Assembly: GCA_003971905.1 (NCBI GenBank)
Contig: RSEE01000036.1
Coordinates: 620,001 to 644,416 of the forward strand
Length of the DNA stretch: 24,416 nucleotides
Reading direction: 5' to 3'
From: Moniliella sp. 'wahieum'
Lineage: Eukaryota
Of this stretch, positions 301 through 24,416 are shown in pieces. Made by a program: the position numbers and the translations under genes. Position 1 is the stretch's first letter. Each line of letters begins with the position of its first letter. Under the pieces are notes generated by a model. That model was not told the origin of the DNA and ran no database searches. It saw only the letters and a program-made list of their open reading frames with translations.

Positions 301-2154
301 CCCCCCATCTCGCCCCCTCGTACCTCGGCTGCAGGGTTGTCAGCTTCAATCGGATCAGCCCAGACGTCCCACTCGGCTAGGAGACGCAACGTCTTTGTTG
401 ATCGCTTCATCCCCACTCGCCACGGTGACGACTTGCACGACGCTTACCATCTCTTGGACGACCATCCCGCGTCTCCTACCTACGGAAAAAAGGTCTGCCC
501 CGTTGATACGGATGCGCAAAAGGGTGTGTACCACTTTCCTTCTGGTTTGGGCTAGATACTGACAGAGCTGCGACAGCGGAAGCCTCCCAAGCTTTCTCTT
601 CGGTTCTCGGGACCGAGCTCTTTGGAGATACCGCCTCGGGTGCTGCGGCACGAGCTTACGTGCTCAATGGCAGGACCAACAGCACCAGCCTTGACCCTAC
701 TGATCGGCCTACCTCCCCTGGGCCATCAAACTCCAGTGGCGCTCCCTCTGTGCCTGCCCGTTCCCCCCGCACACCCGGGAAACGAAACCTGCTGGTTTAT
801 TCCCCTTCGGGCAAAGCCAGCCGCTCCTTCCAAGCGCCAGGGCTAGGCTCAACACCCACCTCAGGCGAGGGCCTGTTTGGTTTGGGCGACGCGTCCAGAG
901 AAGACACCAGCTTCTCCATCGACTCACCTCTGCATCAATCCTATTCGACCTCGCCTGTCAAGGTCGAGTCGCAACGCCTGCTTCTCGGTCCCAGGAGGGC
1001 ACCGAGGGTGCTGCCCAAGGTGCCCTTCAAAGTTCTCGATGCACCGTATTTGGCTGATGACTTCTACCTCAACCTGGTAGATTGGTCGAGTCAAAATACA
1101 CTCGGTGTTGGCTTGGGTTCGTGTGTCTATCTCTGGTCAGCCAAGAACAGCGCCATCACAGCGCTTTGTGATCTCAAGAACCAGCAAGATAAAGTTACCT
1201 CACTTTCTTGGACTGGACGTGGGTCCCACATTGCCGTTGGGACAGATCGGGGGCAAGTCCAGATTTGGGATACGGACCATTGCCGCCTAGTTCGTACCAT
1301 GTCCGGCCACACTTCGCGCGTTGGCGCCTTGGCCTGGAACGAGCACGTTGTCACATCTGGCTCGCGGGATCAGAGTATCATACACTGGGACGTCCGTGTC
1401 CCCGATCCCGCCATCCAAACATTGACCGCCCATCGACAAGAAGTGTGTGGCCTGCGCTGGAACACGGAGCTGAACCAACTCGTCTCGGGCGGCAACGATA
1501 ATCGGGTGTACGTCTGGGACGGCATGCGCGCCGACCCGCTGTGGAGGTTCAATGAGCATCGTGCGGCTGTCAAGGCGGTGGCTTGGTCGCCCCATCAGGC
1601 TGGCTTGCTCGCTTCCGGGGGCGGTGGTACAGCGATAAACGACTGTGCTTTTGGAACACGTTGACGGGGGAACGGGTTGGGTCGGTACATACGGGCTCGC
1701 AGGTGTGCAACGTGGCGTGGAGCAAGACGGCCAACGAGGTGGTGTCGACGCATGGCTTTTCCGGCGGGCGGTGCAAAACCAGATCATGGTGTGGAGGTAC
1801 ACCAACCCGCACTCGCACAACCCCATTGGCATCCATGCCTCCGCCAGCCAGGCATGGGGCGGGATGAACGCCGCGGCCAGCACCTCCTCGCTCTTGTCCC
1901 ACTCCTCTCCCTCGGCCGACGTGCTCGGTGGCGACGACGCAGATGCGGGCGGGATGGTGCTGCAGCCGATGGCTACGTTGACCGGCCACACCATGCGCGT
2001 TCTCTATCTCGCCATGTCCCCGGATGGCGATACGATTGTGACCGGCGCAGGGGACGAGACGCTGCGGTTCTGGGACCTCAACGCGCCGTCGCGCCGAGCA
2101 ATCGAGAAGCGGGCGCAGAGCACAACGCTCAACCCTTTTGCGCGCCTGCGGTAG
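301..2154 (+). CDS. CDH1: APC/C co-activator Cdh1/Fzr1/Srw1-family WD40 protein; 5' end not resolved (start probably upstream of 301 or outside the window); intron 524-576; apparent frameshifts near 1633 and 1768
   Basis: C-box DRFIPTR at 400-420. After the intron: EASQAFSSVLGTELFG, then PKVPFKVLDAPYLADDFYLNLVDWS, WD40 repeats (GHTSRVGALAWN, AHRQEVCGLRW, EHRAAVKAVAWSPHQAGLLASGGG, TGSQVCNVAWSK, NEVVSTHGFS, GHTMRVLYLAMSPDGDTIVTGAGDETLRFW), ending FARLR-stop at 2154. FKVLDAP and RVLYL favour Cdh1 over Cdc20. The conserved sequence hops between ORFs 660-1664, 1583-1867 and 1645-2154. Confidence 0.93.
524..576 (+). other. Spliceosomal intron in the CDH1-like gene (53 nt)
   Basis: Donor G|GTGTGT at 524, branch-like TACTGAC near 558-563, acceptor CAG ending at 576. 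Splicing joins ...DAQK-A-EASQAFSSVL in the frame of ORF 660-1664. Confidence 0.8.
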
Positions 2155-4189: not shown

Positions 4190-4689
4190 AGAAGTAGAAA
4201 GGAGTTTGGGTATAGCCCAACAGGTTTGGTGAGCTACAACCAGGGAGATCATGATGAAGAGAGCTGGTGAATCACAAGCTTGTCGCGATATGGATGCGTT
4301 CTCGAACCTCCTACGTGATACCACACTCGGGATAAGGGCGACTCCAGCGGAAGGGCAAGCAGGCCGTGCTGGTGGGCAAAAACACGATCCATATGAAGAC
4401 GCTGTTGGAACCAGACTCAACCAGGGCAAAAGAAGGGAGATCGGAGCTGGGGACGGGGACGCGGACGAAGAACCACAGGGCGCAAATGAACAAGGACTGC
4501 GAAAGATCCTGAAGAAGGCCGCCTGTATGGGGCCGATGGCTGCCTCAGACAGAACCAGCCGTGGAAGATTTGGCCTGGCGAGCCGGGGGCGGACCGTCAA
4601 GCGGGCAGTGTGTTTTGGGCAATGCGGTGGTCACGGGTGCCGCAAAAGTAGCAGGATCCTTTCACGCTCTATGCTCCCGATGCCGCGCT
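4190..4689 (-). pseudogene. Degenerate Ty3/gypsy gag zinc-knuckle and aspartic protease relic (older element; left boundary approximate)
   Basis: Minus strand 4653-4605 reads CYFCGTRDHRIAQ-[7 extra nt]-CP, a disrupted CX2CX4HX4C. 4430-4392 reads FALVESGSNSVFI (protease ALVDSG motif with D->E), followed after a frameshift by MDRVFAHQHGLLALPLESPL. Multiple stops and frameshifts. Confidence 0.7.
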
Positions 4690-4870
4690 TGTCACAGTCG
4701 GGGCTAAGGCGAGGGAGACCAGGATCGGACTAGGCCAAGGGGTGTAGCAATCGTTCGTGGGGAAGAAGCAAGAACAGAGGACATGGTGCGAAGTGGAAGG
4801 AACAGGGAAGGAGCGAGACGCTCGAGACGAAGGAATTGGAAATGGGAGCGAGATCAGCCAAACTATGACA
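4690..4870 (-). mobile_element. 3' LTR (181 bp) of the chromovirus
   Basis: Termini are TGTCATAGT (minus strand, from 4870) and TGTCACAGT (plus strand, from 4690), an 8/9 inverted repeat with TG...CA ends. The LTR follows the polypurine tract directly. Confidence 0.78.
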
Positions 4871-4883
4871 TTGCCCCCTTTCA
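4871..4883 (-). other. Polypurine tract (PPT) of the chromovirus
   Basis: Minus strand TGAAAGGGGGCAA, overlapping the pol stop codon and immediately followed by the LTR start TGTCA. Confidence 0.8.
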
Positions 4884-5874
4884 GACCTCATCTCCCGGGC
4901 GGCGACGAAGGCGAGAGAGGGCGAGTCGGCGGGCATGGGAGACAGGCTTATCGGGGTAGAGGGCGTGGAAACGAACCACTGGCTCGGCGTCATGAGACAT
5001 GTCCGCAGCGGGTACCCACTCCCTCTCGTGGACAGGATAGCCCCGGAAGTGAACAAAGTACTCAATGCGGCCTCCACGACCCTTGCGGCGAGAGTCGAGG
5101 ACATGCTCGACCTCGTGATGAACCGCACCATCATCAGCAAACTCGGGGAGAGGAGGCGGGGGCTCGATCAAGCGGGCAGGGACCACGTCACCAGGGGTGT
5201 AGGCTCGCAAGCGGGACACATGGAACACGTCATGGAGGTGTAGGTAGTCGGGGAGGCGGACCTGGTACGCGGCGCGGCCCACGGCGCGGACAATGGGAAA
5301 GGGGCCGAGGTAGCGATAGTCCAGGCCGTCAGAAGGCCTGGCTGGACACATACCCGTCCCGACGGACCAAAACAGGCTGGCCAGCAGTGAAGGAAGCCGC
5401 CTCGGTGCGCTGCTGATCGGCATAATGCTTGTAGCGTTCTTGGGCCGCGGCGAGCGTGCGGCGGGCCACCGCCTGGGCCGAACGCAAATCCTCCAGATAT
5501 GACGCAGCATCGGGCACGGGCGAAGTGGAGGGCTCCAACTCCCCCGGGGGAGTAACCATAGGTGAGGACAAAGGGGGACTGGTGGGTGCTCGAGTGGGAG
5601 GACGAGTTGTAGGCGAATTCGGCCGTGGGGAGGAGATCGAACCAGTTGGACTGCTGCTCGTCGAGGTAGCAGCGGAGGTACTGTTCGAGGATCTGGTTGA
5701 GTCGCTCAGTCTGGCCGTCCGTCTGGGGGTGGTACGCGGTGCTGAGGCTCGACTTGATGCCCAAGTCGGCACACAAGGCTTGCCAGAAGTGGCTTGTGAA
5801 GGTCGGTCCCCGATCACTCACCAGATCCCGGGGAACGCCATGGTAGCGAAAGACCTGGTGTACAAACTGGCGCG
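4881..5874 (-). mobile_element. Ty3/gypsy chromovirus pol 3' fragment: integrase core, GPF/Y module and chromodomain; truncated at 5874; two frameshifts (~5545 and ~5340)
   Basis: FRYHGVPRDLVSDRGPTFTSHFW, STAYHPQTDGQTERLNQILEQYLR and AEFAYNSS...SPF (rve core); YLGPFPIV...YQVRLP...HDVFHVSRLRAY (GPF/Y module); HEVEHVLDSRR...YFVHFRGYPVHEREWVP (chromodomain). Pieces lie in ORFs 5168-5887, 5329-5817 and 4881-5510. Confidence 0.95.
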
Positions 5875-6643
5875 TGTTACGGGCCATGTCGGATCCGACC
5901 AGATCTGACCTTCAAGCCGAGGCCCGTCTGCTCTATCTGATCAAAGAGCTCGCTCCCAAGTCTTTTTCCAAGTCCACCATGCGGCTGGCGCAAATGCCAG
6001 CCGACGTCCAAGTCTACGTACTCAGCGACAATAGTCGCTTCCGCCTCAGTTGATTGAGGACCCCAGTTTCGTCGCTCCCAGCTTTCCGTTGCTCCCCGTT
6101 TTCCCTTGCGACCTCGCGACGCTAGTCGCCCCGTGCTTGTTGATCCTCTTCGCCTCCTGCCCACTTCTCGCCAATCGATTCAGTACAGGCAACTCCTCCC
6201 GCTCTTAGTCGCCTTTCTACTCCCGGCTTAGATCGCAAGCCCTCGTCCTCAGTCCTCAGTACTCCTAGTTCCCCCAGCCCGCGTGAGCCTTCCTCGTGCC
6301 ACGCTCGGTCCAGCCCAGTTAAGCCGCGTGTGATCTGGTTCTTCGCCACGCCGCTCCCTCAGTCCAACCCCAGTTCAGCAGCGTTGGTCCTCCGCTGCCT
6401 TCCACCTTCCCCGAATCACGAGGCTTCAGACACGCTACTGCCGCCCAAGCCGGTGTTAAGCAGCCTTGCCACACTTGCAGCGCCTCTGCTATACGCCGAG
6501 AGGCCTCTCCTTGTCCCTAGCTCCGCAGCGGACACACCAATCAGCTCAAGCGCGTAACTACCGTGAGTCGTCCTTCCGTTTAATAAGGGATTGTACCCCA
6601 ATACTTGGGTGAGCCTCCTAGCGGGGCCCGCCCGTGACTTACA
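5875..6643. mobile_element. Second LTR-like sequence (~765 bp) interrupting the integrase; right end at 6638/6639 or 6643; orientation unresolved
   Basis: Integrase homology stops abruptly at TGTTACGGGC (5875). The far end reads GCCCGTGAC-TTACA (6630-6643): GCCCGTGACT is an 8/10 inverted match to the left end, and TTACA offers an alternative CA terminus. AATAA lies ~55 nt before the right end on the plus strand. No partner LTR or second target-site duplication is visible in the window. Confidence 0.6.
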
Positions 6644-9600
6644 AGGGCATGCCCCCCCCCATTCAGGGTTGAGACAACTTTTGACTGGCAGACCGGGGGA
6701 GTGAGTTTTTTTGAATAGCCCCAGGCCGTAGCTTTCCAACGATCCCACTCTCACTCCGATCTGACGCCTGGTCTTGCGTCGCGTGGGCACCCTAGCGTAG
6801 CCCTACCGATAGTACCCAGGGTGGATGTGACCATGCCAACTTGGGGTCTCATCCGTTCCAGCCCCCACTTCCCACAGCAGTAGTCCCAGTCCAGGAGATG
6901 ACCTGGGGCTATTCAGATCCAGGATCACCTTGTAGAATCTAGTACCTGTCATAGGAGGGACGTGGGTGACAGGCATCACCGGTCACCGTACATCGTTGAG
7001 TGAACATCACCCTTCAACCCCGACGGTGACTGAATCGAAGTACCTTGGTGTGTAGAGCTGGGTCAGGAGAAGCGATAGCACCGGTCCGGATCTCGATCCG
7101 ACCAATACTGACCGAGTACCATCCGTGGAAAGTCTGACCGGTGACATCACCCTCTACTCGACCTGCAGGGCTCAAACCTCGACCTATTCCAGATCTGTTT
7201 CGTGCAGCCTCTAGTCCTGACCGAGGTCTAGAGGCTCTGGTAGTTTCATTCCGGTCGGACCAATATTGACGGACCGAGGTGGAGTTGAACCTGGGGTACG
7301 ACCTGATACTTACAAGGGCATGCCCACCCCACCCATTCAGGGTTGAGACAACTTTTGACTGGCAGACCGGGGGAGTGAGTTTTTTGAATAGCCCCAGGCC
7401 GTAGCTTTCCAACGATCCCACTCTCACTCCGATCTGACGCCTGGTCTTGCGTCGCGTGGCACCCTAGCGTAGCCCTACCGATAGTACCCAGGGTGGATGT
7501 GACCATGCCAACTTGGGGTCTCATCCGTTCCAGCCCCCACTTCCCACAGCAGTAGTCCAGTCCAGGAGATGACCTGGGGCTATTCAGATCCAGGATCACC
7601 TTGTAGAATCTAGTACCTGTCATAGGAGGGACGTGGGTGACAGGCATCACCGGTCACCGTACATCGTTGAGTGAACATCACCCTTCAACCCCGACCCCTG
7701 GACTGAATCGAAGTACCTTGGTGTGTAGAGCTGGGTCAGGAGAAGCGATAGCACCGGTCCGGATCTCGATCCGACCAATACTGACCGAGTACCATCCGTG
7801 GAAAGTCTGACCGGTGACATCACCCTCTACTCGACCTGCAGGGCTCAAACCTCGACCTATTCCAGATCTGTTTCGTGCAGCCTCTAGTCCTGACCGAGGT
7901 CTAGAGGCTCTGGTAGTTTCATTCCGGTCGGACCAATATTGACGGACCGAGGTGGAGTTGAACCTGGGGTACGACTGATACTTACAAGGGCATGCCCACC
8001 CCACCCATTCAGGGTTGAGACAACTTTTGACTGGCAGACCGGGGGAGTGAGTTTTTTTGAATAGCCCCAGGCCGTAGCTTTCCAACGATCCCACTCTCAC
8101 TCTCACGATCTGACGCCTGGTCTTGCGTCGCGTGGGCACCCTAGCGTAGCCCTACCGATAGTACCCAGGGTGGATGTGACCATGCCAACTTGGGTCTCAT
8201 CCGTTCCAGCCCCCACTTCCCACAGCAGTAGTCCCAGTCCAGGAGATGACCTGGGGCTATTCAGATCCAGGATCACCTTGTAGAATCTAGTACCTGTCAT
8301 AGGAGGGACGTGGGTGACAGGCATCACCGGTCACCGTACATCGTTGAGTGAACATCACCCTTCAACCCCGACCCCTGGACTGAATCGAAGTACCTTGGTG
8401 TGTAGAGCTGGGTCAGGAGAAGCGATAGCACCGGTCCGGATCTCGATCCGACCAATACTGACCGAGTACCATCGTGGAAAGTCTGACCGGTGACATCACC
8501 CTCTACTCGACCTGCAGGGCTCAAACCTCGACCTATTCCAGATCTGTTTCGTGCAGCCTCTAGTCCTGACCGAGGTCTAGAGGCTCTGGTAGTTTCATTC
8601 CGGTCGGACCAATATTGACGGACCGAGGGGAGTTGAACCTGGGGTACGACCTTACTTACAGGGCATGCCCACCCACCCATTCAGGGTTGAGACAACTTTG
8701 ACTGGCAGACCGGGGGAGTGAGTTTTTTGAATAGCCCCAGGCCGTAGCTTTCCAACGATCCCACTCTCACTCCGATCTGACGCCTGTCTTGCGTCGCGTG
8801 GGCACCCTAGCGTAGCCCTACCGATAGTACCCAGGGTGGATGTGACCATGCCAACTTGGGGTCTCATCCGTTCCAGCCCCCACTTCCCACAGCAGTAGTC
8901 CCAGTCCAGGAGATGACCTGGGGCTATTCAATCCAGGATCACCTTGTAGAATCTAGTACCTGTCATAGGAGGGACGTGGGTGACAGGCATCACCGGTCAC
9001 CGTACATCGTTGAGTGAACATCACCCTTCAACCCCGACCCCTGGACTGAATCGAAGTACCTTGGTGTGTAGAGCTGGGTCAGGAGAAGCGATGCACCGGT
9101 CCGGATCTCGATCCGACCAATACTGACCGAGTACCATCCGTGGAAAGTCTGACCGGTGACATCACCCTCTACTCGACCTGCAGGGCTCAACCTCGACCTA
9201 TTCCAGATCTGTTTCGTGCAGCCTCTAGTCCTGACCGAGGTCTAGAGGCTCTGGTAGTTTCATTCCGGTCGGACCAATATTGACGGACCGAGGTGGAGTT
9301 GAACCTGGGTACGACCTGATACTTACAAGGGCATGCCCACCCCACCCATTCAGGGTTGAGACAACTTTTGACTGGCAGACCGGGGGAGTGAGTTTTTTTG
9401 AATAGCCCCAGGCCGTAGCTTTCCAACGATCCCACTCTCACTCCGATCTGACGCCTGGTCTTGCGTCGCGTGGGCACCCTAGCGTAGCCCTACCGATAGT
9501 ACCCAGGGTGGATGTGACCATGCCAACTTGGGGTCTCATCCGTTCCAGCCCCCACTTCCCACAGCAGTAGTCCCAGTCCAGGAGATGACCTGGGGCTATT

Positions 9601-12600
9601 CAGATCCAGGATCACCTTGTAGAATCTAGTACCTGTCATAGGAGGGACGTGGGTGACAGGCATCACCGGTCACCGTACATCGTTGAGTGAACATCACCCT
9701 TCAACCCCGACCCCTGGACTGAATCGAAGTACCTTGTGTGTAGAGCTGGGTCAGGAGAAGCGATAGCACCGGTCCGGATCTCGATCCGACCAATACTGAC
9801 CGAGTACCATCCGTGGAAAGTCTGACCGGTGACATCACCCTCTACTCGACCTGCAGGGCTCAAACCTCGACCTATTCCAGATCTGTTTCGTGCAGCCTCT
9901 AGTCCTGACCGAGGTCTAGAGGCTCTGGTAGTTTCATTCCGGTCGGACCAATATTGACGGACCGAGGTGGAGTTGAACCTGGGGTACGACCTGATACTTA
10001 CAAGGGCATGCCCACCCCACCCATTCAGGGTTGAGACAACTTTTGACTGGCAGACCGGGGGAGTGAGTTTTTTGAATAGCCCCAGGCCGTAGCTTTCCAA
10101 CGATCCCACTCTCACTCCGATCTGACGCCTGGTCTTGCGTCGCGTGGGCACCCTAGCGTAGCCCTACCGATAGTACCCAGGGTGGATGTGACCATGCCAA
10201 CTTGGGGTCTCATCCGTTCCAGCCCCCACTTCCCACAGCAGTAGTCCCAGTCCAGGAGATGACCTGGGCTATTCAGATCCAGGATCACCTTGTAGAATCT
10301 AGTACCTGTCATAGGAGGGACGTGGGTGACAGGCATCACCGGTCACCGTACATCGTTGAGTGAACATCACCCTTCAACCCCGACCCCTGGACTGAATCGA
10401 AGTACCTTGGTGTGTAGAGCTGGGTCAGGAGAAGCGATAGCACCGGTCCGGATCTCGATCCGACCAATACTGACCGAGTACCATCCGTGGAAAGTCTGAC
10501 GGTGACATCACTCTCGACCTGCAGGGCTCAAACCCGACCTATTCCAGATCTGTTTCGTGAGCCTCTAGTCCTGACCGAGGTATGAGGCTCTGGGTAGTTT
10601 CATTACGGTCGGACCAATATTGACGGACCGAGGTGGAGTTGAACTGGGGTACGACCTGATACTTACAAGGGATGCCCACCCCACCCATTCAGGGTTGAGA
10701 CAACTTTTGACTGGCAGACCGGGGGAGTGAGTTTTTTTGAATAGCCCCAGGCCGTAGCTTTCCAACGATCCCACTCTCACTCCGATCTGACGCCTGGTCT
10801 TGCGTCGCGTGGGCACCCTAGCGTAGCCCTACCGATAGTACCCAGGGTGGATGTGACCATGCCAACTTGGGGTCTCATCCGTTCCAGCCCCCACTTCCCA
10901 CAGCAGTTAGTCCCAGTCCAGGAGATGACCTGGGGCTATTCAGATCCAGGATCACCTTGTAGAATCTAGTACCTGTCATAGGAGGGACGTGGGTGACAGG
11001 CATCACCGGTCACCGTACATCGTTGAGTGAACATCACCCTTCAAACCCCGACCCCTGGACTGAATCGAAGTACCTTGATGTGTAGAGCTGGGTCAGGAGA
11101 AGCGATAGCACCGGTCCGGATCTCGATCCGACCAATACTGACCGAGTACCATCCGTGGAAAGTCTGACCGGTGACATCACCCTCTACTCGACCTGCAGGG
11201 CTCAAACCTCGACCTATTCCAGATCTGTTTCGTGCAGCCTCTAGTCCTGACCGAGGTCTAGAGGCTCTGGTAGTTCATTCCGGTCGGACCAATATTGACG
11301 GACCGAGGTGGAGTTGAACCTGGGGTACGACCTGATACTTACAAGGGCATGCCCACCCCACCCATTCAGGGTTGAGACAACTTTTGACTGGCAGACGGGG
11401 GAGTGAGTTTTTTTGAATAGCCCCAGGCCGTAGCTTTCCAACGATCCCACTCTCACTCCGATCTGACGCCTGGTCTTGCGTCGCGTGGGCACCCTAGCGT
11501 AGCCCTACCGATAGTACCCAGGGTGGATGTGACCATGCCAACTTGGGGTCTCATCCGTTCCAGCCCCCACTTCCCACAGCAGTAGTCCCAGTCCAGGAGA
11601 TGACCTGGGGCTATTCAGATCCAGGATCACCTTGTAGAATCTAGTACCTGTCATAGGAGGGACGTGGGTGACAGGCATCACCGGTCACCGTACATCGTTG
11701 AGTGAACATCACCCTTCAACCCCGACCCCTGGACTGAATCGAAGTACCTTGGTGTGTAGAGCTGGGTCAGGAGAAGCGATAGCACCGGTCCGGATCTCGA
11801 TCCGACCAATACTGACCGAGTACCATCCGTGGAAAGTCTGACCGGTGACATCCCTCTACTCGACCTGCAGGGCTCAAACCTCGACCTATTCCAGATCTGT
11901 TTCGTGCAGCCTCTAGTCCTGACCGAGGTCTAGAGGCTCTGGTAGTTTCATTCCGGTCGGACCAATATTGACGGACCGAGGTGGAGTTGAACCTGGGGTA
12001 CGACCTGATACAAGGGCATGCCCACCCCACCCATTCAGGGTTGAGACAACTTTTGACTGGCAGACCGGGGGAGTGAGTTTTTTGAATAGCCCCAGGCCGT
12101 AGCTTTCCAACGATCCCACTCTCACTCCGATCTGACGCCTGGTCTTGCGTCGCGTGGGCACCCTAGCGTAGCCCTACCGATAGTACCCAGGGTGGATGTG
12201 ACCATGCCAACTTGGGGTCTCATCCGTTCCAGCCCCCACTTCCCACAGCAGTAGTCCCAGTCCAGGAGATGACCTGGGGCTATTCAGATCCAGGATCACC
12301 TTGTAGAATCTAGTACCTGTCATAGGAGGGACGTGGGTGACAGGCATCACCGGTCACCGTACATCGTTGAGTGAACATCACCCTTCAACCCCGACCCTGG
12401 ACTGATCGAAAAGTACCTTGGTGTGTAGAGCTGGGTCAGGAGAAGCGATAGCACCGGTCCGGATCTCGATCCGACCAATACTGACCGAGTACCATCCGTG
12501 GAAAGTCTGACCGGTGACATCACCCTCTACTCGACCTGCAGGGCTCAAACCTCGACCTATTCCAGATCTGTTTCGTGCAGCCTCTAGTCCTGACCGAGGT

Positions 12601-15600
12601 CTAGAGGCTCTGGTAGTTTCATTCCGGTCGGACCAATATTGACGGACCGAGGTGGAGTTGAACCTGGGGTACGACCTGATACTTACAAGGGCATGCCCAC
12701 CCCACCCATTCAGGGTTGAGACAACTTTTGACTGGCAGACCGGGGGAGTGAGTTTTTTTGAATAGCCCCAGGCCGTAGCTTTCCAACGATCCCACTCTCA
12801 CTCCGATCTGACGCCTGGTCTTGCGTCGCGTGGGCACCCTAGCGTAGCCCTACCGATAGTACCCAGGGTGGATGTGACCATGCCAACTTGGGGTCTCATC
12901 CGTTCCAGCCCCCACTTCCCACAGCAGTAGTCCCAGTCCAGGAGATGACCTGGGGCTATTCAGATCCAGGATCACCTTGTAGAATCTAGTACCTGTCATA
13001 GGAGGGACGTGGGTGACAGGCATCACCGGTCACCGTACATCGTTGAGTGAACATCACCCTTCAACCCCGACCCCTGGACTGAATCGAAGTACCTTGGTGT
13101 GTAGAGCTGGGTCAGGAGAAGCGATAGCACCGGTCCGGATCTCGATCCGACCAATACTGACCGAGTACCATCCGTGGAAAGTCTGACCGGTGACATCACC
13201 CTCTACTCGACCTGCAGGGCTCAAACCTCGACCTATTCCAGATCTGTTTCGTGCAGCCTCTAGTCCTGACCGAGGTCTAGAGGCTCTGGTAGTTTCATTC
13301 CGGTCGGACCAATATTGACGGACCGAGGTGGAGTTGAACCTGGGGTACGACCTGATACTTACAAGGGCATGCCCACCCCACCCATTCAGGGTTGAGACAA
13401 CTTTTGACTGGCAGACCGGGGGAGTGAGTTTTTTGAATAGCCCCAGGCCGTAGCTTTCCAACGATCCCACTCTCACTCCGATCTGACGCCTGGTCTGTCG
13501 CGTGGGCACCCTAGCGTAGCCCTACCGATAGTACCCAGGGTGGATGTGACCATGCCAACTTGGGGTCTCATCCGTTCCAGCCCCCACTTCCCACAGCAGT
13601 AGTCCCAGTCCAGGAGATGACCTGGGGCTATTCAGATCCAGGATCACCTTGTAGAATCTAGTACCTGTCATAGGAGGGACGGGGTGACAGGCATCACCGG
13701 TCACCGTACATCGTTGAGTGAACATCACCCTTCAACCCCGACCCCTGGACTGAATCGAAGTACCTTGGTGTGTAGAGCTGGGTCAGGAGAAGCGATAGCA
13801 CCGGTCCGGATCTCGATCCGACCAATACTGACCGAGTACCATCCGTGGAAAGTCTGACCGGTGACATCACCCTCTACTCGACCTGCAGGGCTCAAACCTC
13901 GACCTATTCCAGATCTGTTTCGTGCAGCCTCTAGTCCTGACCGAGGTCTAGAGGCTCTGGTAGTTTCATTCCGGTCGGACCAATATTGACGGACCGAGGT
14001 GGAGTTGAACCTGGGGTACGACCTGATACTTACAAGGGCATGCCCACCCCACCCATTCAGGGTTGAGACAAACTTTTGACTGGCAGACCGGGGGAGTGAG
14101 TTTTTTTGAATAGCCCCAGGCCGTAGCTTTCCAACGATCCCACTCTCACTCCGATCTGACGCCTGGTCTTGCGTCGCGTGGGCACCCTAGCGTAGCCTAC
14201 GATAGTACCCAGGGTGGATGTGACCATGCCAACTTGGGGTCTCATCCGTTCCAGCCCCCACTTCCCACAGCAGTAGTCCCAGTCCAGGAGATGACCTGGG
14301 GCTATTCAGATCCAGGATCACCTTGTAGAATCTAGTACCTGTCATAGGAGGGACGTGGGTGACAGGCATCACCGGTCACCGTACATCGTTGAGTGAACAT
14401 CACCCTTCAACCCCGACCCCTGGACTGAATCGAAGTACTTGGTGTGTAGAGCTGGGTCAGGAGAAGCGATAGCACCGGTCCGGATCTCGATCCGACCAAT
14501 ACTGACCGAGTACCATCCGTGGAAAGTCTGACCGGTGACATCACCCTCTACTCGACCTGCAGGGCTCAAACCTCGACCTATTCCAGATCTGTTTCGTGCA
14601 GCCTCTAGTCCTGACCGAGGTCTAGAGGCTCTGGTAGTTTCATTCCGGTCGGACCAATATTGACGGACCGAGGTGGAGTTGAACCTGGGGTACGACCTGA
14701 TACTTACAAGGGCATGCCCACCCCACCCATTCAGGGTTGAGACAACTTTTGACTGGCAGACCGGGGGAGTGAGTTTTTTTGAATAGCCCCAGGCCGTAGC
14801 TTTCCAACGATCCCACTCTCACTCCGATCTGACGCCTGGTCTTGCGTCGCGTGGGCACCCTAGCGTAGCCTACCGATAGTACCCAGGGTGGATGTGACCA
14901 TGCCAACTTGGGGTCTCATCCGTTCCAGCCCCCACTTCCCACAGCAGTCCCAGTCCAGGAGATGACCTGGGGCTATTCAGATCCAGGATCACCTTGTAGA
15001 ATCTAGTACCTGTCATAGGAGGGACGTGGGTGACAGGCATCACCGGTCACCGTACATCGTTGAGTGAACATCACCCTTCAACCCCGACCCCTGGACTGAA
15101 TCGAAGTACCTTGGTGTGTAGAGCTGGGTCAGGAGAAGCGATAGCACCGGTCCGGATCTCGATCCGACCAATACTGACCGAGTACCATCCGTGGAAAGTC
15201 TGACCGGTGACATCACCCTCTACTCGACCTGCAGGGCTCAAACCTCGACCTATTCCAGATCTGTTTCGTGCAGCCTCTAGTCTGACCGAGGTCTAGAGGC
15301 TCTGGTAGTTCATTCCGGTCGGACCAATATTGACGGACCGAGGTGGAGTGAACCTGGGGTACGACCTGATACTTACAAGGGCATGCCCACCCCACCCATT
15401 CAGGGTTGAACAACTTTGACTGGCAGACCGGGGGAGTGAGTTTTTTGAATAGCCCCAGGCCGTAGCTTTCAACGATCCCATCTCACTCCGATCTGACGCC
15501 TGGCTTGCGTCGCGTGGGCACCCTAGCGTAGCCCTAGAGAGTAGCCCAGGGTGGATGTGACCATGCCAAGTGGGGTCTCATCCGTTCCAGCCCCCACTTC

Positions 15601-18141
15601 CCACAGCAGTAGTCCCAGTCCAGGAGATGACCTGGGGCTATTCAGATCCAGGATCACCTTGTAGAATCTAGTACCTGTCATAGGAGGGACGTGGGTGACA
15701 GGCATCACCGGTCACCGTACATCGTTGAGTGAACATCACCCTTCAACCCCGACCCCTGGACTGAATCGAAGTACCTTGGTGTGTAGAGCTGGGTCAGGAG
15801 AAGCGATAGCACCGGTCCGGATCTCGATCCGACCAATACTGACCGAGTACCATCCGTGGAAAGTCTGACCGGTGACATCACCCTCTACTCGACCTGCAGG
15901 GCTCAAACCTCGACCTATTCCAGATCTGTTTCGTGCAGCCTCTAGTCCTGACCGAGGTCTAGAGGCTCTGGTAGTTTCATTCCGGTCGGACCAATATTGA
16001 CGGACCGAGGTGGAGTTGAACCTGGGGTACGACCTGATACTTACAAGGGCATGCCCACCCCACCCATTCAGGGTTGAGACAACTTTTGACTGGCAGACCG
16101 GGGGAGTGAGTTTTTTTGAATAGCCCCAGGCCGTAGCTTTCCAACGATCCCACTCTCACTCCGATCTGACGCCTGGTCTTGCGTCGCGTGGGCACCCTAG
16201 CGTAGCCCTACCGATAGTACCCAGGGTGGATGTGACCATGCCAACTTGGGGTCTCATCCGTTCCAGCCCCCACTTCCCACAGCAGTAGTCCCAGTCCAGG
16301 AGATGACCTGGGGCTATTCAGATCCAGGATCACCTTGTAGAATCTAGTACCTGTCATAGGAGGGACGTGGGTGACAGGCATCACCGGTCACCGTACATCG
16401 TTGAGTGAACATCACCCTTCAACCCCGACCCCTGGACTGAATCGAAGTACCTTGGTGTGTAGAGCTGGGTCAGGAGCGATAGCACCGGTCCGGATCTCGA
16501 TCCGACCAATACTGACCGAGTACCATCCGTGGAAAGTCTGACCGGTGACATCACCCTCTACTCGACCTGCAGGGCTCAAACCTCGACCTATTCCAGATCT
16601 GTTTCGTGCAGCCTCTAGTCCTGACCGAGGTCTAGAGGCTCTGGTAGTTTCATTCCGGTCGGACCAATATTGACGGACCGAGGTGGAGTTGAACCTGGGG
16701 TACGACCTGATACTTACAAGGGCATGCCCACCCCACCCATTCAGGGTTGAGACAACTTTTGACTGGCAGACCGGGGGAGTGAGTTTTTTTGAATAGCCCC
16801 AGGCCGTAGCTTTCCAACGATCCCACTCTCACTCCGATCTGACGCCTGGTCTTGCGTCGCGTGGGCACCCTAGCGTAGCCCTACCGATAGTACCCAGGGT
16901 GGATGTGACCATGCCAACTTGGGGTCTCATCCGTTCCAGCCCCCACTTCCCACAGCAGTAGTCCCAGTCCAGGAGATGACCTGGGGCTATTCAGATCCAG
17001 GATCACCTTGTAGAATCTAGTACCTGTCATAGGAGGGACGTGGGTGACAGGCATCACCGGTCACCGTACATCGTTGAGTGAACATCACCCTTCAACCCCG
17101 ACCCCTGGACTGAATCGAAGTACCTTGGTGTGTAGAGCTGGGTCAGGAGAAGCGATAGCACCGGTCCGGATCTCGATCCGACCAATACTGACCGAGTACC
17201 ATCCGTGGAAAGTCTGACCGGTGACATCACCCTCTACTCGACCTGCAGGGCTCAAACCTCGACCTATTCCAGATCTGTTTCGTGCAGCCTCTAGTCCTGA
17301 CCGAGGTCTAGAGGCTCTGGTAGTTTCATTCCGGTCGGACCAATATTGACGGACCGAGGTGGAGTTGAACCTGGGGTACGACCTGATACTTACAAGGGCA
17401 TGCCCACCCCACCCATTCAGGGTTGAGACAACTTTTGACTGGCAGACCGGGGGAGTGAGTTTTTTTGAATAGCCCCAGGCCGTAGCTTTCCAACGATCCC
17501 ACTCTCACTCCGATCTGACGCCTGGTCTTGCGTCGCGTGGGCACCCTAGCGTAGCCCTACCGATAGTACCCAGGGTGGATGTGACCATGCCAACTTGGGG
17601 TCTCATCCGTTCCAGCCCCCACTTCCCACAGCAGTAGTCCCAGTCCAGGAGATGACCTGGGGCTATTCAGATCCAGGATCACCTTGTAGAATCTAGTACC
17701 TGTCATAGGAGGGACGTGGGTGACAGGCATCACCGGTCACCGTACATCGTTGAGTGAACATCACCCTTCAACCCCGACCCCTGGACTGAATCGAAGTACC
17801 TTGGTGTGTAGAGCTGGGTCAGGAGAAGCGATAGCACCGGTCCGGATCTCGATCCGACCAATACTGACCGAGTACCATCCGTGGAAAGTCTGACCGGTGA
17901 CATCACCCTCTACTCGACCTGCAGGGCTCAAACCTCGACCTATTCCAGATCTGTTTCGTGCAGCCTCTAGTCCTGACCGAGGTCTAGAGGCTCTGGTAGT
18001 TTCATTCCGGTCGGACCAATATTGACGGACCGAGGTGGAGTTGAACCTGGGGTACGACCTGATACTTACAAGGGCATGCCCACCCCACCCATTCAGGGTT
18101 GAGACAACTTTTGACTGGCAGACCGGGGGAGTGAGTTTTTT

Positions 18142-18345
18142 TGAATAGCCCCAGGCCGTAGCTTTCCAACGATCCCACTCTCACTCCGATCTGACGCCTG
18201 GTCTTGCGTCGCGTGGGCACCCTAGCGTAGCCCTACCGATAGTACCCAGGGTGGATGTGACCATGCCAACTTGGGGTCTCATCCGTTCCAGCCCCCACTT
18301 CCCACAGCAGTAGTCCCAGTCCAGGAGATGACCTGGGGCTATTCA
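18142..18345. repeat. Perfect 14-bp inverted repeat delimiting a 204-bp sub-element in each monomer (coordinates for one representative copy)
   Basis: TGAATAGCCCCAGG (18142-18155) and CCTGGGGCTATTCA (18332-18345). Confidence 0.95.
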
Positions 18346-18637
18346 GATCCAGGATCACCTTGTAGAATCTAGTACCTGTCATAGGAGGGACGTGGGTGAC
18401 AGGCATCACCGGTCACCGTACATCGTTGAGTGAACATCACCCTTCAACCCCGACCCCTGGACTGAATCGAAGTACCTTGGTGTGTAGAGCTGGGTCAGGA
18501 GAAGCGATAGCACCGGTCCGGATCTCGATCCGACCAATACTGACCGAGTACCATCCGTGGAAAGTCTGACCGGTGACATCACCCTCTACTCGACCTGCAG
18601 GGCTCAAACCTCGACCTATTCCAGATCTGTTTCGTGC

Positions 18638-18668
18638 AGCCTCTAGTCCTGACCGAGGTCTAGAGGCT
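18638..18668. repeat. Hairpin in each monomer: 13-bp stem with one mismatch, 5-nt loop (representative copy)
   Basis: AGCCTCTAGTCCT-GACCG-AGGTCTAGAGGCT. Confidence 0.92.
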
Positions 18669-21600
18669 CTGGTAGTTTCATTCCGGTCGGACCAATATTG
18701 ACGGACCGAGGTGGAGTTGAACCTGGGGTACGACCTGATACTTACAAGGGCATGCCCACCCCACCCATTCAGGGTTGAGACAACTTTTGACTGGCAGACC
18801 GGGGGAGTGAGTTTTTTTGAATAGCCCCAGGCCGTAGCTTTCCAACGATCCCACTCTCACTCCGATCTGACGCCTGGTCTTGCGTCGCGTGGGCACCCTA
18901 GCGTAGCCCTACCGATAGTACCCAGGGTGGATGTGACCATGCCAACTTGGGGTCTCATCCGTTCCAGCCCCCACTTCCCACAGCAGTAGTCCCAGTCCAG
19001 GAGATGACCTGGGGCTATTCAGATCCAGGATCACCTTGTAGAATCTAGTACCTGTCATAGGAGGGACGTGGGTGACAGGCATCACCGGTCACCGTACATC
19101 GTTGAGTGAACATCACCCTTCAACCCCGACCCCTGGACTGAATCGAAGTACCTTGGTGTGTAGAGCTGGGTCAGGAGAAGCGATAGCACCGGTCCGGATC
19201 TCGATCCGACCAATACTGACCGAGTACCATCCGTGGAAAGTCTGACCGGTGACATCACCCTCTACTCGACCTGCAGGGCTCAAACCTCGACCTATTCCAG
19301 ATCTGTTTCGTGCAGCCTCTAGTCCTGACCGAGGTCTAGAGGCTCTGGTAGTTTCATTCCGGTCGGACCAATATTGACGGACCGAGGTGGAGTTGAACCT
19401 GGGGTACGACCTGATACTTACAAGGGCATGCCCACCCCACCCATTCAGGGTTGAGACAACTTTTGACTGGCAGACCGGGGGAGTGAGTTTTTTTGAATAG
19501 CCCCAGGCCGTAGCTTTCCAACGATCCCACTCTCACTCCGATCTGACGCCTGGTCTTGCGTCGCGTGGGCACCCTAGCGTAGCCCTACCGATAGTACCCA
19601 GGGTGGATGTGACCATGCCAACTTGGGGTCTCATCCGTTCCAGCCCCCACTTCCCACAGCAGTAGTCCCAGTCCAGGAGATGACCTGGGGCTATTCAGAT
19701 CCAGGATCACCTTGTAGAATCTAGTACCTGTCATAGGAGGGACGTGGGTGACAGGCATCACCGGTCACCGTACATCGTTGAGTGAACATCACCCTTCAAC
19801 CCCGACCCCTGGACTGAATCGAAGTACCTTGGTGTGTAGAGCTGGGTCAGGAGAAGCGATAGCACCGGTCCGGATCTCGATCCGACCAATACTGACCGAG
19901 TACCATCCGTGGAAAGTCTGACCGGTGACATCACCCTCTCGACCTGCAGGGCTCAAACCTCGACCTATTCCAGATCTGTTTCGTGCAGCCTCTAGTCCTG
20001 ACCGAGGTCTAGAGGCTCTGGTAGTTTCATTCCGGTCGGACCAATATTGACGGACCGAGGTGGAGTTGAACCTGGGGTACGACCTGATACTTACAAGGGC
20101 ATGCCCACCCCACCCATTCAGGGTTGAGACAACTTTTGACTGGCAGACCGGGGGAGTGAGTTTTTTTGAATAGCCCCAGGCCGTAGCTTTCCAACGATCC
20201 CACTCTCACTCCGATCTGACGCCTGGTCTTGCGTCGCGTGGGCACCCTAGCGTAGCCCTACCGATAGTACCCAGGGTGGATGTGACCATGCCAACTTGGG
20301 GTCTCATCCGTTCCAGCCCCCACTTCCCACAGCAGTAGTCCCAGTCCAAGATGACCTGGGGCTATTCAGATCCAGGATCACCTTGTAGAATCTAGTACCT
20401 GTCATAGGAGGGACGTGGGTGACAGGCATCACCGGTCACCGTACATCGTTGAGTGAACATCACCCTTCAACCCCGACCCCTGGACTGAATCGAAGTACCT
20501 TGGTGTGTAGAGCTGGGTCAGGAGAAGCGATAGCACCGGTCCGGATCTCGATCCGACCAATACTGACCGAGTACCATCCGTGGAAAGTCTGACCGGTGAC
20601 ATCACCCTCTACTCGACCTGCAGGGCTCAAACCTCGACCTATTCCAGATCTGTTTCGTGCAGCCTCTAGTCCTGACCGAGGTCTAGAGGCTCTGGTAGTT
20701 TCATTCCGGTCGGACCAATATTGACGGACCGAGGTGGAGTTGAACCTGGGGTACGACCTGATACTTACAAGGGCATGCCCACCCCACCCATTCAGGGTTG
20801 AGACAACTTTTGACTGGCAGACCGGGGGAGTGAGTTTTTTTGAATAGCCCCAGGCCGTAGCTTTCCAACGATCCCACTCTCACTCCGATCTGACGCCTGG
20901 TCTTGCGTCGCGTGGGCACCCTAGCGTAGCCCTACCGATAGTACCCAGGGTGGATGTGACCATGCCAACTTGGGGTCTCATCCGTTCCAGCCCCCACTTC
21001 CCACAGCAGTAGTCCCAGTCCAGGAGATGACCTGGGGCTATTCAGATCCAGGATCACCTTGTAGAATCTAGTACCTGTCATAGGAGGGACGTGGGTGACA
21101 GGCATCACCGGTCACCGTACATCGTTGAGTGAACATCACCCTTCAACCCCGACCCCTGGACTGAATCGAAGTACCTTGGTGTGTGAGCTGGGTCAGGAGA
21201 AGCGATAGCACCGGTCCGGATCTCGATCCGACCAATACTGACCGAGTACCATCCGTGGAAAGTCTGACCGGTGACATCACCCTCTACTCGACCTGCAGGG
21301 CTCAAACCTCGACCTATTCCAGATCTGTTTCGTGCAGCCTCTAGTCCTGACCGAGGTCTAGAGGCTCTGGTAGTTTCATTCCGGTCGGACCAATATTGAC
21401 GGACCGAGGTGGAGTTGAACCTGGGGTACGACCTGATACTTACAAGGGCATGCCCACCCCACCCATTCAGGGTTGAGACAACTTTTGACTGGCAGACCGG
21501 GGGAGTGAGTTTTTTTGAATAGCCCCAGGCCGTAGCTTTCCAACGATCCCACTCTCACTCCGATCTGACGCCTGGTCTTGCGTCGCGTGGGCACCCTAGC

Positions 21601-24416
21601 GTAGCCCTACCGATAGTACCCAGGTGGATGTGACCATGCCAACTTGGGTCTCATCCGTTCCAGCCCCCACTTCCCACAGCAGTAGTCCCAGTCCAGGAGA
21701 TGACCTGGGGCTATTCAGATCCAGGATCACCTTGTAGAATCTAGTACCTGTCATAGGAGGGACGTGGGTGACAGGCATCACCGGTCACCGTACATCGTTG
21801 AGTGAACATCACCCTTCCCCCGACCCCTGGACTGAATCGAAGTACCTTGGTGTGTAGAGCTGGGTCAGGAGAAGCGATAGCACCGGTCCGGATCTCGATC
21901 CGACCAATACTGACCGAGTACCATCCGTGGAAAGTCTGACCGGTGACATCACCTCACTCTACGACCTGCAGGCTCAAACCTCGACCTATTCCAGATCTGT
22001 TTCGTGCAGCCTCTAGTCCTGACCGAGGTCTAGAGGCTCTGGTAGTTTCATTCCGGTCGGACCAATATTGACGGACCGAGGTGGAGTTGAACCTGGGGTA
22101 CGACCTGATACTTACAAGGGCATGCCCACCCCACCCATTCAGGGTTGAGACAACTTTGACTGGCAGACCGGGGGAGTGAGTTTTTTTGAATAGCCCCAGG
22201 CCGTAGCTTTCCAACGATCCCACTCTCACTCCGATCTGACGCCTGGTCTTGCGTCGCGTGGGCACCCTAGCGTAGCCCTACCGATAGTACCCAGGGTGGA
22301 TGTGACCATGCCAACTTGGGGTCTCATCCGTTCCAGCCCCCACTTCCCACAGCAGTAGTCCCAGTCCAGGAGATGACCTGGGGCTATTCAGATCCAGGAT
22401 CACCTTGTAGAATCTAGTACCTGTCATAGGAGGGACGTGGGTGACAGGCATCACCGGTCACCGTACATCGTTGAGTGAACATCACCCTTCAACCCACCCC
22501 GACCCCTGGACTGAATCGAAGTACCTTGGTGTGTAGAGCTGGGTCAGGAGAAGCGATAGCACCGGTCCGGATCTCGATCCGACCAATACTGACCGATACC
22601 ATCCGTGGAAAGTCTGACCGGTGACATCACCCTCTACTCGACCTGCAGGGCTCAAACCTCGACCTATTCCAGATCTGTTTCGTGCAGCCTCTAGTCCTGA
22701 CCGAGGTCTAGAGGCTCTGGTAGTTTCATTCCGGTCGGACCAATATTGACGGACCGAGGTGGAGTTGAACCTGGGGTACGACCTGATACTTACAAGGGCA
22801 TGCCCACCCCACCCATTCAGGGTTGAGACAACTTTTGACTGGCAGACCGGGGGAGTGAGTTTTTTTGAATAGCCCCAGGCCGTAGCTTTCCAACGATCCC
22901 ACTCTCACTCCGATCTGACGCCTGGTCTTGCGTCGCGTGGGCACCCTAGCGTAGCCCTACCGATAGTACCCAGGGTGGATGTGACCATGCCAACTTGGGG
23001 TCTCATCCGTTCCAGCCCCCACTTCCCACAGCAGTAGTCCCAGTCCAGGAGATGACCTGGGGCTATTCAGATCCAGGATCACCTTGTAGAATCTAGTACC
23101 TGTCATAGGAGGGACGTGGGTGACAGGCATCACCGGTCACCGTACATCGTTGAGTGAACATCACCCTTCAACCCCGACCCCTGGACTGAATCGAAGTACC
23201 TTGGTGTGTAGAGCTGGGTCAGGAGAAGCGATAGCACCGGTCCGGATCTCGATCCGACCAATACTGACCGAGTACCATCCGTGGAAAGTCTGACCGGTGA
23301 CATCACCCTCTACTCGACCTGCAGGGCTCAAACCTCGACCTATTCCAGATCTGTTTCGTGCAGCCTCTAGTCCTGACCGAGGTCTAGAGGCTCTGGTAGT
23401 TTCATTCCGGTCGGACCAATATTGACGGACCGAGGTGGAGTTGAACCTGGGGTACGACCTGATACTTACAAGGGCATGCCCACCCCACCCATTCAGGGTT
23501 GAGACAACTTTTGACTGGCAGACCGGGGGAGTGAGTTTTTTTGAATAGCCCCAGGCCGTAGCTTTCCAACGATCCCACTCTCACTCCGATCTGACGCCTG
23601 GTCTTGCGTCGCGTGGGCACCCTAGCGTAGCCCTACCGATAGTAACCCAGGGTGGATGTGACCATGCCAACTTGGGGTCTCATCCGTTCCAGCCCCCACT
23701 TCCCACAGCATAGTCCCAGTCCAGGAGATGACCTGGGGCTATTCAGATCCAGGATCACCTTGTAGAATCTAGTACCTGTCATAGGAGGGACGTGGGTGAC
23801 AGGCATCACCGGTCACCGTACATCGTTGAGTGAACATCACACCTTCAACCACACCCCCCGACCCCTGGACTGAATCGAAGTACCTTTGTGTAGAGCTGGG
23901 TCAGGAGAAGCGATAGCCACCGGCCGGATCTCGATCCGACAATACTGACCGAGTACCATCCGTGGAAAGTCTGACCGGTGACATCACCCTCTACTCGACC
24001 TGCAGGGCTCAAACCTCGACCTATTCCAGATCTGTTTCGTTGCAGCCTCTAGTCCTGACCGAGGTCTAGAGGCTCTGGTAGTTTCATTCCGGTCGGACCA
24101 TAATTGACGGACCGAGGTGGAGTTGAACCTGGGGTACGACCTGATACAAGGGCATGCCACCCCACCCATTCAGGGTTGAGACAACTTTTGACTGGCAGAC
24201 CGGGGGAGTGAGTTTTTTGAAGCCCCCGGCCGTAGCTTTCCAACGATCCCACTCTCACTCCGATCTGACGCCTGGTCTTGCGTCGCGTGGCACCCTAGCG
24301 TAGCCCTACCGATAGTACCCAGGGTGGATGTGACCATGCAACTTGGGGTCTCATCCGTTCCAGCCCCCACTTCCCACAGCAGTAGTCCCAGTCCAGGAGA
24401 TGACCTGGGGCTATTC

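Follow-up and report, generated by a model that had tools for sequence, protein, structure and literature searches.

How does a long, homogeneous satellite come to begin at the very edge of what looks like a retrotransposon terminal repeat, in a fungal genome? The 24,416-nucleotide stretch of Moniliella sp. 'wahieum' DNA analysed here (the window) raises this question, since a tandem array of 676-bp monomers sets out from the end of an LTR-like unit, itself lying against the cut integrase gene of a resident Ty3/gypsy chromovirus (Table 1). The making of satellites from tandem repeats of LTR elements is documented in plants and has hardly been described in fungi. In the following we present the anatomy of the array and of the unit that it adjoins, and weigh the possibility that the satellite was born in place against other explanations of the same arrangement.

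Table 1. Positions of the features of the locus within the window
Feature	Position	Strand	Remarks
Cdh1/Fizzy-related (CDC20-family WD40) gene	379..2151	+	Pfam PF24807, E 8.6e-80; two frame changes, no intron room
Ty3/gypsy chromovirus 3' LTR, 181 bp	4690..4870	-	Minus strand reads TGTCATAG...CTGTGACA
Chromovirus polypurine tract (PPT)	4871..4882	-	GAAAGGGGGCAA on minus strand; abuts LTR and overlaps pol stop codon (ORF end 4881)
Chromovirus integrase, C-terminal part	4881..5874	-	Last half of rve, SH3_Tf2-1, chromodomain; cut at 5874/5875
LTR-like unit, 769 bp	5875..6643	.	Ends TGTTAC...TTACA; inverted match GTTACGGGC/GTCACGGGC; non-coding
17-bp mini tandem repeat, 2.9 copies	6062..6109	.	Tandem Repeats Finder; inside LTR-like unit
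ACTTACA	6637..6643	.	Only letters common to the end of the LTR-like unit and every monomer end; candidate short direct repeat
Satellite array	6638..24416	.	26 full 676-bp monomers and a 274-bp partial one; runs past window end
First (edge) monomer	6638..7308	.	Two multi-base differences from all other copies

Results

The array

From 6637/6638 to the end of the window the array spans 17,780 bp, with a consensus monomer of 676 bp. Anchor matches number 27, from 6638 to 24143, at a spacing of 665-678 bp, and an 18-nt junction word, ACTTACAAGGGCATGCCC, has 23 exact occurrences, the first at 6637, against none in 100 shuffles. These counts bear out the preliminary description of the locus, which had reported a homogeneous 676-bp satellite of more than 17.7 kb starting at 6637. 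The two junction strings that it had compared are both there: the left edge of the array (6630-6648) reads ..GCCCGTGAC followed by TTACAAGGG, and the joins between monomers read ..CCTGATAC followed by the same TTACAAGGG. Also present in every monomer is the G-rich tract that it had placed on the minus strand (GGGTGGGGTGGG, then 8 nt, then TGTAAG); in the first copy the tract is a run of nine G. As in satellites, the monomers are arranged head to tail and contiguously over more than 10 kb, in this one assembly. The array is missing from the output of Tandem Repeats Finder because the longest period that the program handles is 500.

Pairwise identity among the monomers averages 98.0% with gaps counted, and 6 of the 26 are identical to the consensus. 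The departures of these 26 monomers from the consensus consist of 9 substitutions and 88 indel events (73 deletions and 15 insertions). Frameshifts of a like kind affect the conserved Cdh1/Fizzy gene at the left of the window: when the proteins P0001, P0002 and P0005 are aligned to it by tblastn, the matches fall in frames 1/3/2/1 at 84-90% identity, P0001 being an uninterrupted 398-aa ORF. At one such place, near 1771, a base is missing from a G run. The excess of indels over substitutions, together with the frameshifts in a conserved gene, indicates that the visible variation is mostly long-read consensus error. On this account the true copies would be ~99.9% or more alike, and the array is probably more homogeneous than it appears.

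Identity is flat over lags of 1 to 7 monomers, and there is therefore no higher-order pattern; self-comparison and the lag analysis between them rule out internal sub-repeats and a higher-order repeat. RIP-type mutation was considered and rejected as well (indices 0.90 and 0.94). Two copies stand apart. In the edge monomer, C9 replaces CCCACCCCACCC at 6654, and at 7025 four bases are lost and two gained. The last full monomer is the poorest copy, with ~95% identity to the others.

Coding content of the monomer

The longest stop-free frame in the monomer amounts to 139 aa and has no protein relatives at E<=0.001. Pfam gave no matches in the array (17.7 kb), where no integrase-like ORF was found either, and an exact-sequence look-up of eight ORFs from the window, one of them crossing the junction, found none of the eight. 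With no ORF of note, RNA family or special fold (see Discussion), the monomer seems to be without a product; being non-coding and no known RNA gene, it has the character of a satellite repeat. A Helitron-type reading, prompted by a CT-rich end with a hairpin close to it (17286-17316), was also considered and set aside for want of the defining termini.

The LTR-like unit

Comparison with other sequencing runs supports the view that 5875-6643 is a discrete insert. The runs compared were X1, a food metagenome (0.12 of words), and X2 and X3 from the same study, which have next to none. X1 contains an uninterrupted, near-identical copy of the integrase (record 7), with 2 other letters in 236 followed by 364 unlike letters; by eye, the latter appear to carry on the integrase reading frame. 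Because this copy continues past 5872-5874 with letters unlike those of the window, the integrase of the window must be truly interrupted where the TG of the unit begins. At the other end of the chromovirus fragment, two X1 contigs match from exactly 4690 rightwards, whereas leftwards they are unlike the window and unlike each other, which marks the edge of the 3' LTR. The integrase part itself matches PF00665 (profile positions 50-102 of 102), PF24626 and PF00385.

The preliminary description had called the unit an LTR. Three properties speak for this: the interruption of the integrase at TG, the TG...CA ends that the unit shares with LTRs, and its short terminal inverted repeats, which match at 8/9 positions (p ~0.04 against random 20-mer pairs, a modest value). 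On the other side, the two direct copies typical of LTRs are not found in the window, self-comparison of 1-6643 and comparison with the monomer having revealed no second copy of the unit, and no TGG-type primer-binding site (PBS) was seen after 6643 in a by-eye reading. A Pfam search of 13 frames covering 2161-4730 and the unit produced no real matches. As for the tract described as resembling a PPT or LTR start, the minus strand of every monomer does have a G tract, which in 25 of 26 copies contains an interrupting T; 8 nt separate it from the boundary of the unit, against 0-3 nt between the PPT of the resident gypsy element and its own LTR. That 5875-6643 is an LTR is likely but unproven, an interpretation and not an observation. 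It is where the array begins that sets the right boundary of this putative LTR.

On the left the unit is preceded by GCGCG, a candidate target-site duplication (TSD). The bases that follow it on the right are AGGGC, and the possibility of a solo LTR with a TSD was discarded for that reason. The claim that neither GCGCG nor the upstream part of the integrase follows the unit is thus confirmed, the array being devoid of any integrase-like ORF. Since there is no target-site copy and no remainder of the integrase beyond the unit, the array sits where the internal domain of the element would be, as the preliminary description had proposed.

The unit and the monomer overlap by exactly 7 nt. At a random join, seven or more bases would match with a probability of 4^-7, or ~6e-5, and the overlap suggests that the array may have arisen in place through a short direct repeat. 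A longer homology between the end of the unit and that of the monomer was examined and not retained, p ranging from 0.05 to 0.95 with the length compared.

Occurrence in other samples

A 191-bp contig from an independent sample can be aligned to 6894-7082 with 2 gaps and 14 letters that differ, and over 7017-7032 it agrees with the consensus of the array and not with the first copy. Its presence in such a sample implies that the monomer is not a laboratory sequence. No contig from X1-X3 spans 5875 or 6637; these runs leave 1-4689 almost uncovered, so that blanks in them are not evidence. A 35-bp piece of the LTR-like unit, with 5 differences, occurs in 3.3-kb contigs in X1-X3 and was taken as unrelated. 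In scans for exact words, which pass over diverged relatives, a 22-nt word of the monomer had no occurrence in JGI metagenome contigs, IMG/VR or GTDB genome contigs, and 22-nt and 23-nt words of the LTR-like unit had none in metagenome and genome contigs.

Discussion

The reading that we tentatively put forward, granting it a little less than an even chance as a whole, is that the array is genuine and very young satellite DNA whose source, multiplied in place, was the ~670 bp of non-coding DNA next to the inner edge of one terminal repeat of an LTR-type element, itself inserted in the chromovirus integrase. One could envision the following course of events. An LTR-like element would have entered the gypsy integrase at 5875; the interruption is observed, and the identity of the intruder as an LTR element is what we infer. 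The DNA might then have been duplicated in tandem for the first time, through slippage or unequal exchange between two ACTTACA words that stood 676 bp from each other, at the repeat edge and in the DNA adjoining it, as the 7-nt overlap would lead one to expect. From one copy, the array would have grown to at least 26, in an expansion that the homogeneity of the copies suggests was fast and recent. Unequal sister-chromatid exchange could have carried it; alternatively, a circle could have been excised, copied by the rolling-circle route and reinserted through homology. After the expansion the copies would have remained identical save for assembly errors, the edge copy retaining its private changes. 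The preliminary description had envisaged the capture of a concatemer made from a circle. This has become less likely with the finding of two multi-base differences in the first monomer.

Among the alternatives, it is very improbable that the array consists of tandem functional-RNA genes of the 5S, snRNA or tRNA type, or derives from a retrozyme- or viroid-like circular RNA with self-cleaving ribozymes. Plant retrozymes belong to a size class of 600-1000 nt and are linked with LTRs. The size class of the monomer and its link with an LTR-like unit resemble theirs, and the minus strand folds slightly better than its shuffles (z-score -2.18). However, Rfam 15, with the hammerhead, HDV, twister, 5S and snRNA models included in the search, yielded no matches at E<=1 on either strand of 5800-9400 (3.6 kb), the tRNA search returned no tRNAs, the z-score of the plus strand is -0.35, and a rod-like structure is absent. 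The monomer thus shows neither the ribozyme motifs nor the compact fold of retrozyme- and viroid-like RNAs, and this explanation can be considered largely refuted already. A more serious objection to birth in place, though one we still judge unlikely, is that the satellite is real and has no causal tie to 5875-6643: the block would be debris of a retrotransposon or of something else at a repeat-rich, possibly pericentromeric edge, the array would be independent of it, and the TG..CA ends would be a coincidence. The unit is in keeping with this in being single-copy in the window and without a match in the exact-word scans, in lacking a PBS, a TSD and a second LTR in the window, and in the p of only ~0.04 for its inverted repeats. 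Chromodomain-bearing gypsy elements favour heterochromatin, and one of them adjoins the block. The monomer-like contig, moreover, comes from a sample with no real match to the unit, an absence that is not evidence given the poor cover. What argues against independence is that on its left the block breaks cleanly into the integrase exactly at TG, that a 7-nt share with the monomer end is expected of an in-place duplication and not of an incoming array, and that the rest of the integrase is not found beyond the block, the missing gypsy DNA having given way to block and array together.

It is improbable, finally, that an artefact of assembly or library preparation produced the array or its junction, whether as a chimeric join of a chromosomal read to a concatemer (such as rolling-circle amplified small circular DNA) or as a badly mis-sized array ending a short, poorly polished long-read contig. 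Such an origin would account for a window whose length is odd and which ends inside the array, as might a whole short contig, for the predominance of indel errors in the array and in the conserved gene, and for the low identity of the last full monomer, which fits coverage falling at a contig end. Apart from such errors the copies are identical, like those of a concatemer, and no record from X1-X3, runs that barely cover the unique region, spans 6637. A concatemer of one circle, on the other hand, would not have a first monomer that differs at two multi-base sites, and related monomer sequence is found in the independent sample. The join, too, coincides with a natural terminus of the TG..CA unit, the opposite terminus of which is established independently. 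Assemblers are not known to make 26 tandem copies unless there are reads that contain them.

If verified, at least 18 kb of identical 676-bp units would mean that fungi can make such arrays. The junction at which the satellite was born would still be readable, in the 7-nt direct repeat at the LTR edge and the single divergent edge copy, and would offer a clean example, open to dating, of how the formation of a satellite begins. An LTR-seeded satellite, if true, would counter the current impression that fungi are without satellite architectures. We are doubtful about the stronger claim that this is the first clear case of a long homogeneous fungal satellite seeded by an LTR retroelement, which would make the host a basidiomycete that generates and maintains tens of kilobases of satellite in a possibly pericentromeric region of nested chromoviruses. 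On that claim, copies so nearly identical would speak for a burst of very recent date, such as the rolling-circle amplification of a 676-bp circle followed by its re-entry at the source. Should verification fail, the array would instead caution against trusting contigs that end in arrays when a long-read assembly is unpolished.

Relation to known systems

The adjacency of a retroelement terminal repeat and a tandem array recalls TRIM elements such as Cassandra, as well as the TE-dimer-derived satellites reportedly described by McGurk and Barbash in 2018. In TRIM/Cassandra arrays, however, the LTR alternates with the internal part, whereas the array described here does not contain the 769-bp unit (5875-6636 has no similarity to the monomer). 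A Cassandra- or TRIM-type tandem, the comparison drawn in the preliminary description, is excluded by this.

Another parallel can be drawn with tandem duplication at microhomologies followed by unequal exchange or by rolling-circle copying of extrachromosomal circular DNA (eccDNA). The locus has a 7-nt direct repeat at the boundary between flank and array, and it combines extremely homogeneous interior copies with a divergent edge copy. Formation of eccDNA from plant satellites is reported (PMC2543021). Compared with those systems, the mechanism proposed here is deduced from anatomy alone.

In fungi, centromeres and repeat regions are described as clusters of retrotransposons (bioRxiv 10.64898/2026.09.17.752431; for Cryptococcus, PMC5866544). 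The present locus resembles these clusters, as there portrayed, in its nested Ty3/gypsy sequence and in the chromodomain integrase beside the array. It differs from the repeat regions covered in that survey, which comprises 49 fungi (32 of them basidiomycetes) and reports no satellite architectures (bioRxiv 10.64898/2026.09.17.752431), in having a long satellite and in the presence of a conserved gene only ~2.5 kb from the gypsy fragment. The host is a Ustilaginomycotina-like fungus, and in the open-access literature searched we found no paper on a long satellite in Ustilaginomycotina or any other basidiomycete.

A precedent for the seeding of satellites by LTR elements is offered by the plant Ogre/Tat elements, in which short tandem repeats beside the 3' LTR expand into satellites (Vondrak et al. 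2019, PMC7004042; Macas et al. 2009 cited there). Unlike these, the array described here resides in a fungal host, has no gag-pol domains on its side of the unit and is not accompanied by known dispersed elements with short arrays. Its monomer is long (676 bp) and without sub-repeats, and the likeness is one of LTR adjacency that does not imply a 3' UTR. Within those bounds there is a resemblance: in both, a non-coding tandem repeat lies directly beside an LTR or LTR-like unit, in the place of the untranslated internal region, and in both the array has grown far beyond retrotransposable size in a region of nested gypsy elements.

Results

The 676-bp array running from an LTR-like edge, as reported in the preliminary description, was confirmed: an anchor search located 27 monomer starts between 6638 and 24143, spaced 665-678 bp apart, with a consensus length of 676 bp, and the array is still continuing where the window stops. 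An 18-nt junction word has 23 exact occurrences, the first at 6637, and none in 100 shuffles; direct reading of the sequence found every string quoted in that description at the positions given. From 7 kb onward, G+C stays at about 55-56% up to the window end. The array is absent from the Tandem Repeats Finder output because the longest period of that tool is 500.

Features of the window and their coordinates
Feature	Coordinates	Strand	Description	Source
Cdh1/Fizzy-related gene	379-2151		two frame changes, at 1598-1631 and 1771-1783; too little space for an intron	
Chromovirus LTR	4870-4690	minus	181 bp, unusually short; TGTCATAG...CTGTGACA	
Chromovirus polypurine tract	4882-4871	minus	clear; directly before LTR	
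Ty3/gypsy chromovirus coding part	5874 to 4881	minus	C-terminal half of integrase core, SH3_Tf2-1 domain, chromodomain	
Mini tandem repeat in LTR-like unit	6062-6109		17-bp CCCAGCTTTCCGTTGCT, 2.9 copies	Tandem Repeats Finder
Satellite array	6638 to window end		26 full monomers and a 274-bp partial copy, 17,780 bp	anchor search

Mean pairwise identity of the monomers is 98.0% with gaps counted (range 92.6-100), and six of the 26 full copies match the consensus exactly. Monomers one to seven positions apart are all equally alike; therefore, there is no higher-order repeat. Differences from the consensus comprise 9 substitutions, 73 deletion events and 15 insertion events. Almost every one is confined to a single copy, and about half fall in homopolymer runs. 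Substitutions dominate natural divergence; this deletion-heavy variation is the profile of an unpolished long-read consensus. The poorest full monomer is the last one (about 95% identity), as expected near a contig end. The frame changes of the Cdh1/Fizzy gene likewise look like 1-bp losses in short runs, that is, assembly indel errors: one stems from a G run near 1771 that is a base short, and the protein of a relative (P0001, 84-90% identical) is a single uninterrupted 398-aa ORF over the matching stretch. Such errors in a conserved gene call for caution with any ORF of the contig. Since the same type of defect affects the array and unique DNA, the true array is close to a series of identical copies, with substitutions at most about 0.05%. 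The best named relatives of the Cdh1 fragment are all Ustilaginomycotina (Tilletiaria, 63%; Violaceomyces, 60%; Parajaminaea, Acaromyces, Malassezia and Meira); a further relative is 87% identical.

The monomer is plain non-coding satellite DNA. On its plus strand every frame is shorter than 70 aa (the longest on the minus strand is 139 aa), and it has no Pfam match, no relative in a large protein collection, no sub-repeat and no RIP signature. Its sole notable hairpin, at 17286-17316 and recurring in every monomer, has 13-nt arms, 92% complementary, and a 5-nt loop; a 14-nt perfect inverted pair lies at 16790-16803 and 16980-16993, 176 nt apart. Elsewhere, the monomer was traced only in a 191-bp contig from X1, a public food-metagenome run; this contig departs from the first copy by 14 letters and 2 gaps. 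Neither the monomer nor the LTR-like unit beside it turned up when JGI metagenomes, IMG/VR and GTDB genomes were scanned for exact words.

On its left, the array adjoins a nested retroelement structure. X1 contigs carry copies of the resident chromovirus at about 99% identity; each contig shows 0-2 differences and the flanks vary, so the family looks young and mobile. Two of these contigs match the window from exactly 4690 and, left of it, resemble neither the window nor each other, which places the end of the chromovirus at 4690. A 600-bp X1 contig agrees with 5637-5872 apart from 2 differences, then continues with 364 letters unlike the window. Its alignment was halted by one mismatch at 5873; allowing for this, the flank is CTGGCG(C/T)G and foreign DNA begins with TG at 5875. 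Read by eye, the 364 letters carry the integrase frame onward; the integrase is therefore truly interrupted at 5874/5875, and the break reported earlier is real. Between the Cdh1 gene and the chromovirus end, 2161-4689 (about 2.5 kb) has long open frames on both strands and no Pfam match; the plus strand of 4001-5000 is strongly enriched in purines (AT skew 0.32, GC skew 0.19).

The 769-bp unit between integrase and array (5875-6643) is probably an LTR, as had been proposed. Its left edge is set independently by the integrase break and its right edge by the array start; it begins with TG and finishes with CA, and close to its two ends the sequence forms an inverted match of 8/9 (p about 0.04 versus random 20-mer pairs). 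The proposal is weakened by the presence of only one copy in the window, by a right flank (AGGGC) that does not repeat the left (GCGCG), and by the lack, by eye, of a TGG-type primer-binding site after the unit. The mismatched flanks led us to reject a solo LTR with a target-site duplication. A minus-strand G-rich tract lies 8 nt from the boundary, T-interrupted in every copy except the first, unlike the chromovirus polypurine tract, which abuts its own LTR. Either the array is the interior of an LTR-type element, or its replacement, or a rearrangement removed the remainder. The unit is non-coding, with a C-rich plus strand (GC skew -0.2), and has one AATAAA-like word on each strand, which favors neither orientation. 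A 35-bp stretch of it, 6376-6410, has a counterpart with 5 differences in 3.3-kb contigs from each of the three food-metagenome runs, always at the same place; this is probably a match to an unrelated organism that arose by chance or through low complexity.

Discussion

The unit end and every monomer end have exactly ACTTACA (6637-6643) in common. By arithmetic, a random join would show seven matching bases with a probability of about 6e-5; further left, the two ends are not significantly similar (p 0.05-0.95 across 16-100 nt). An overlap of this kind is what a first tandem duplication between two short direct repeats classically leaves behind, which argues that the array was born at its present spot and not brought in. 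Two multi-base sites set the first monomer apart from the other 25. At the second, the related X1 contig sides with the array consensus and not with the first monomer; therefore, the changes of the edge copy are private and escaped homogenization. Rapid expansion of an interior copy would fit an edge copy of this kind.

A very young satellite that formed in place, with the inner edge of an LTR-type repeat as its seed, is the most likely reading, tentative as it is. The earlier interpretation thus finds partial support. A real satellite with a merely coincidental neighboring block is less likely: the join of unit and monomer carries the seven-base overlap. An assembly or concatemer artefact is less likely still. 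The join at 6637 and the array length come from one assembly, and none of the contigs compared from other samples spans the junction; against a simple concatemer of one circle, accidentally joined, stand the private changes of the first monomer. An array of functional RNAs (retrozyme-like or RNA genes) is very improbable: no Rfam family was found at E<=1 over 5800-9400 on both strands, the monomer has no tRNA, and its RNA folds no better than shuffles (z -0.35, plus; -2.18, minus).

The comparison with TRIM/Cassandra-type tandems made previously fails and was rejected, the unit being unrelated to the monomer: in those tandems the LTR lies inside the repeat, whereas here the LTR-like unit lies outside it. 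A 2026 preprint that surveyed 49 fungal species, 32 of them basidiomycetes, says that it observed no satellite architectures (bioRxiv 10.64898/2026.09.17.752431), and the open-access literature searched yielded no account of a long satellite in Ustilaginomycotina. In outline, the Moniliella array resembles the Ogre-derived satellites of plants. In Lathyrus, 9 of 11 satellites trace back to short tandem arrays that Ogre elements carry in their 3' untranslated region and that expand occasionally, mostly in centromeric regions (PMC7004042). The Moniliella array differs in being without gag-pol and in having a fungal host; for these reasons, and because there are no known dispersed short arrays and neither orientation is favored, membership of the Ogre type is not claimed. 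Set beside the plant satellites, the weight of this case lies in its host group and in a birth junction that can still be read.
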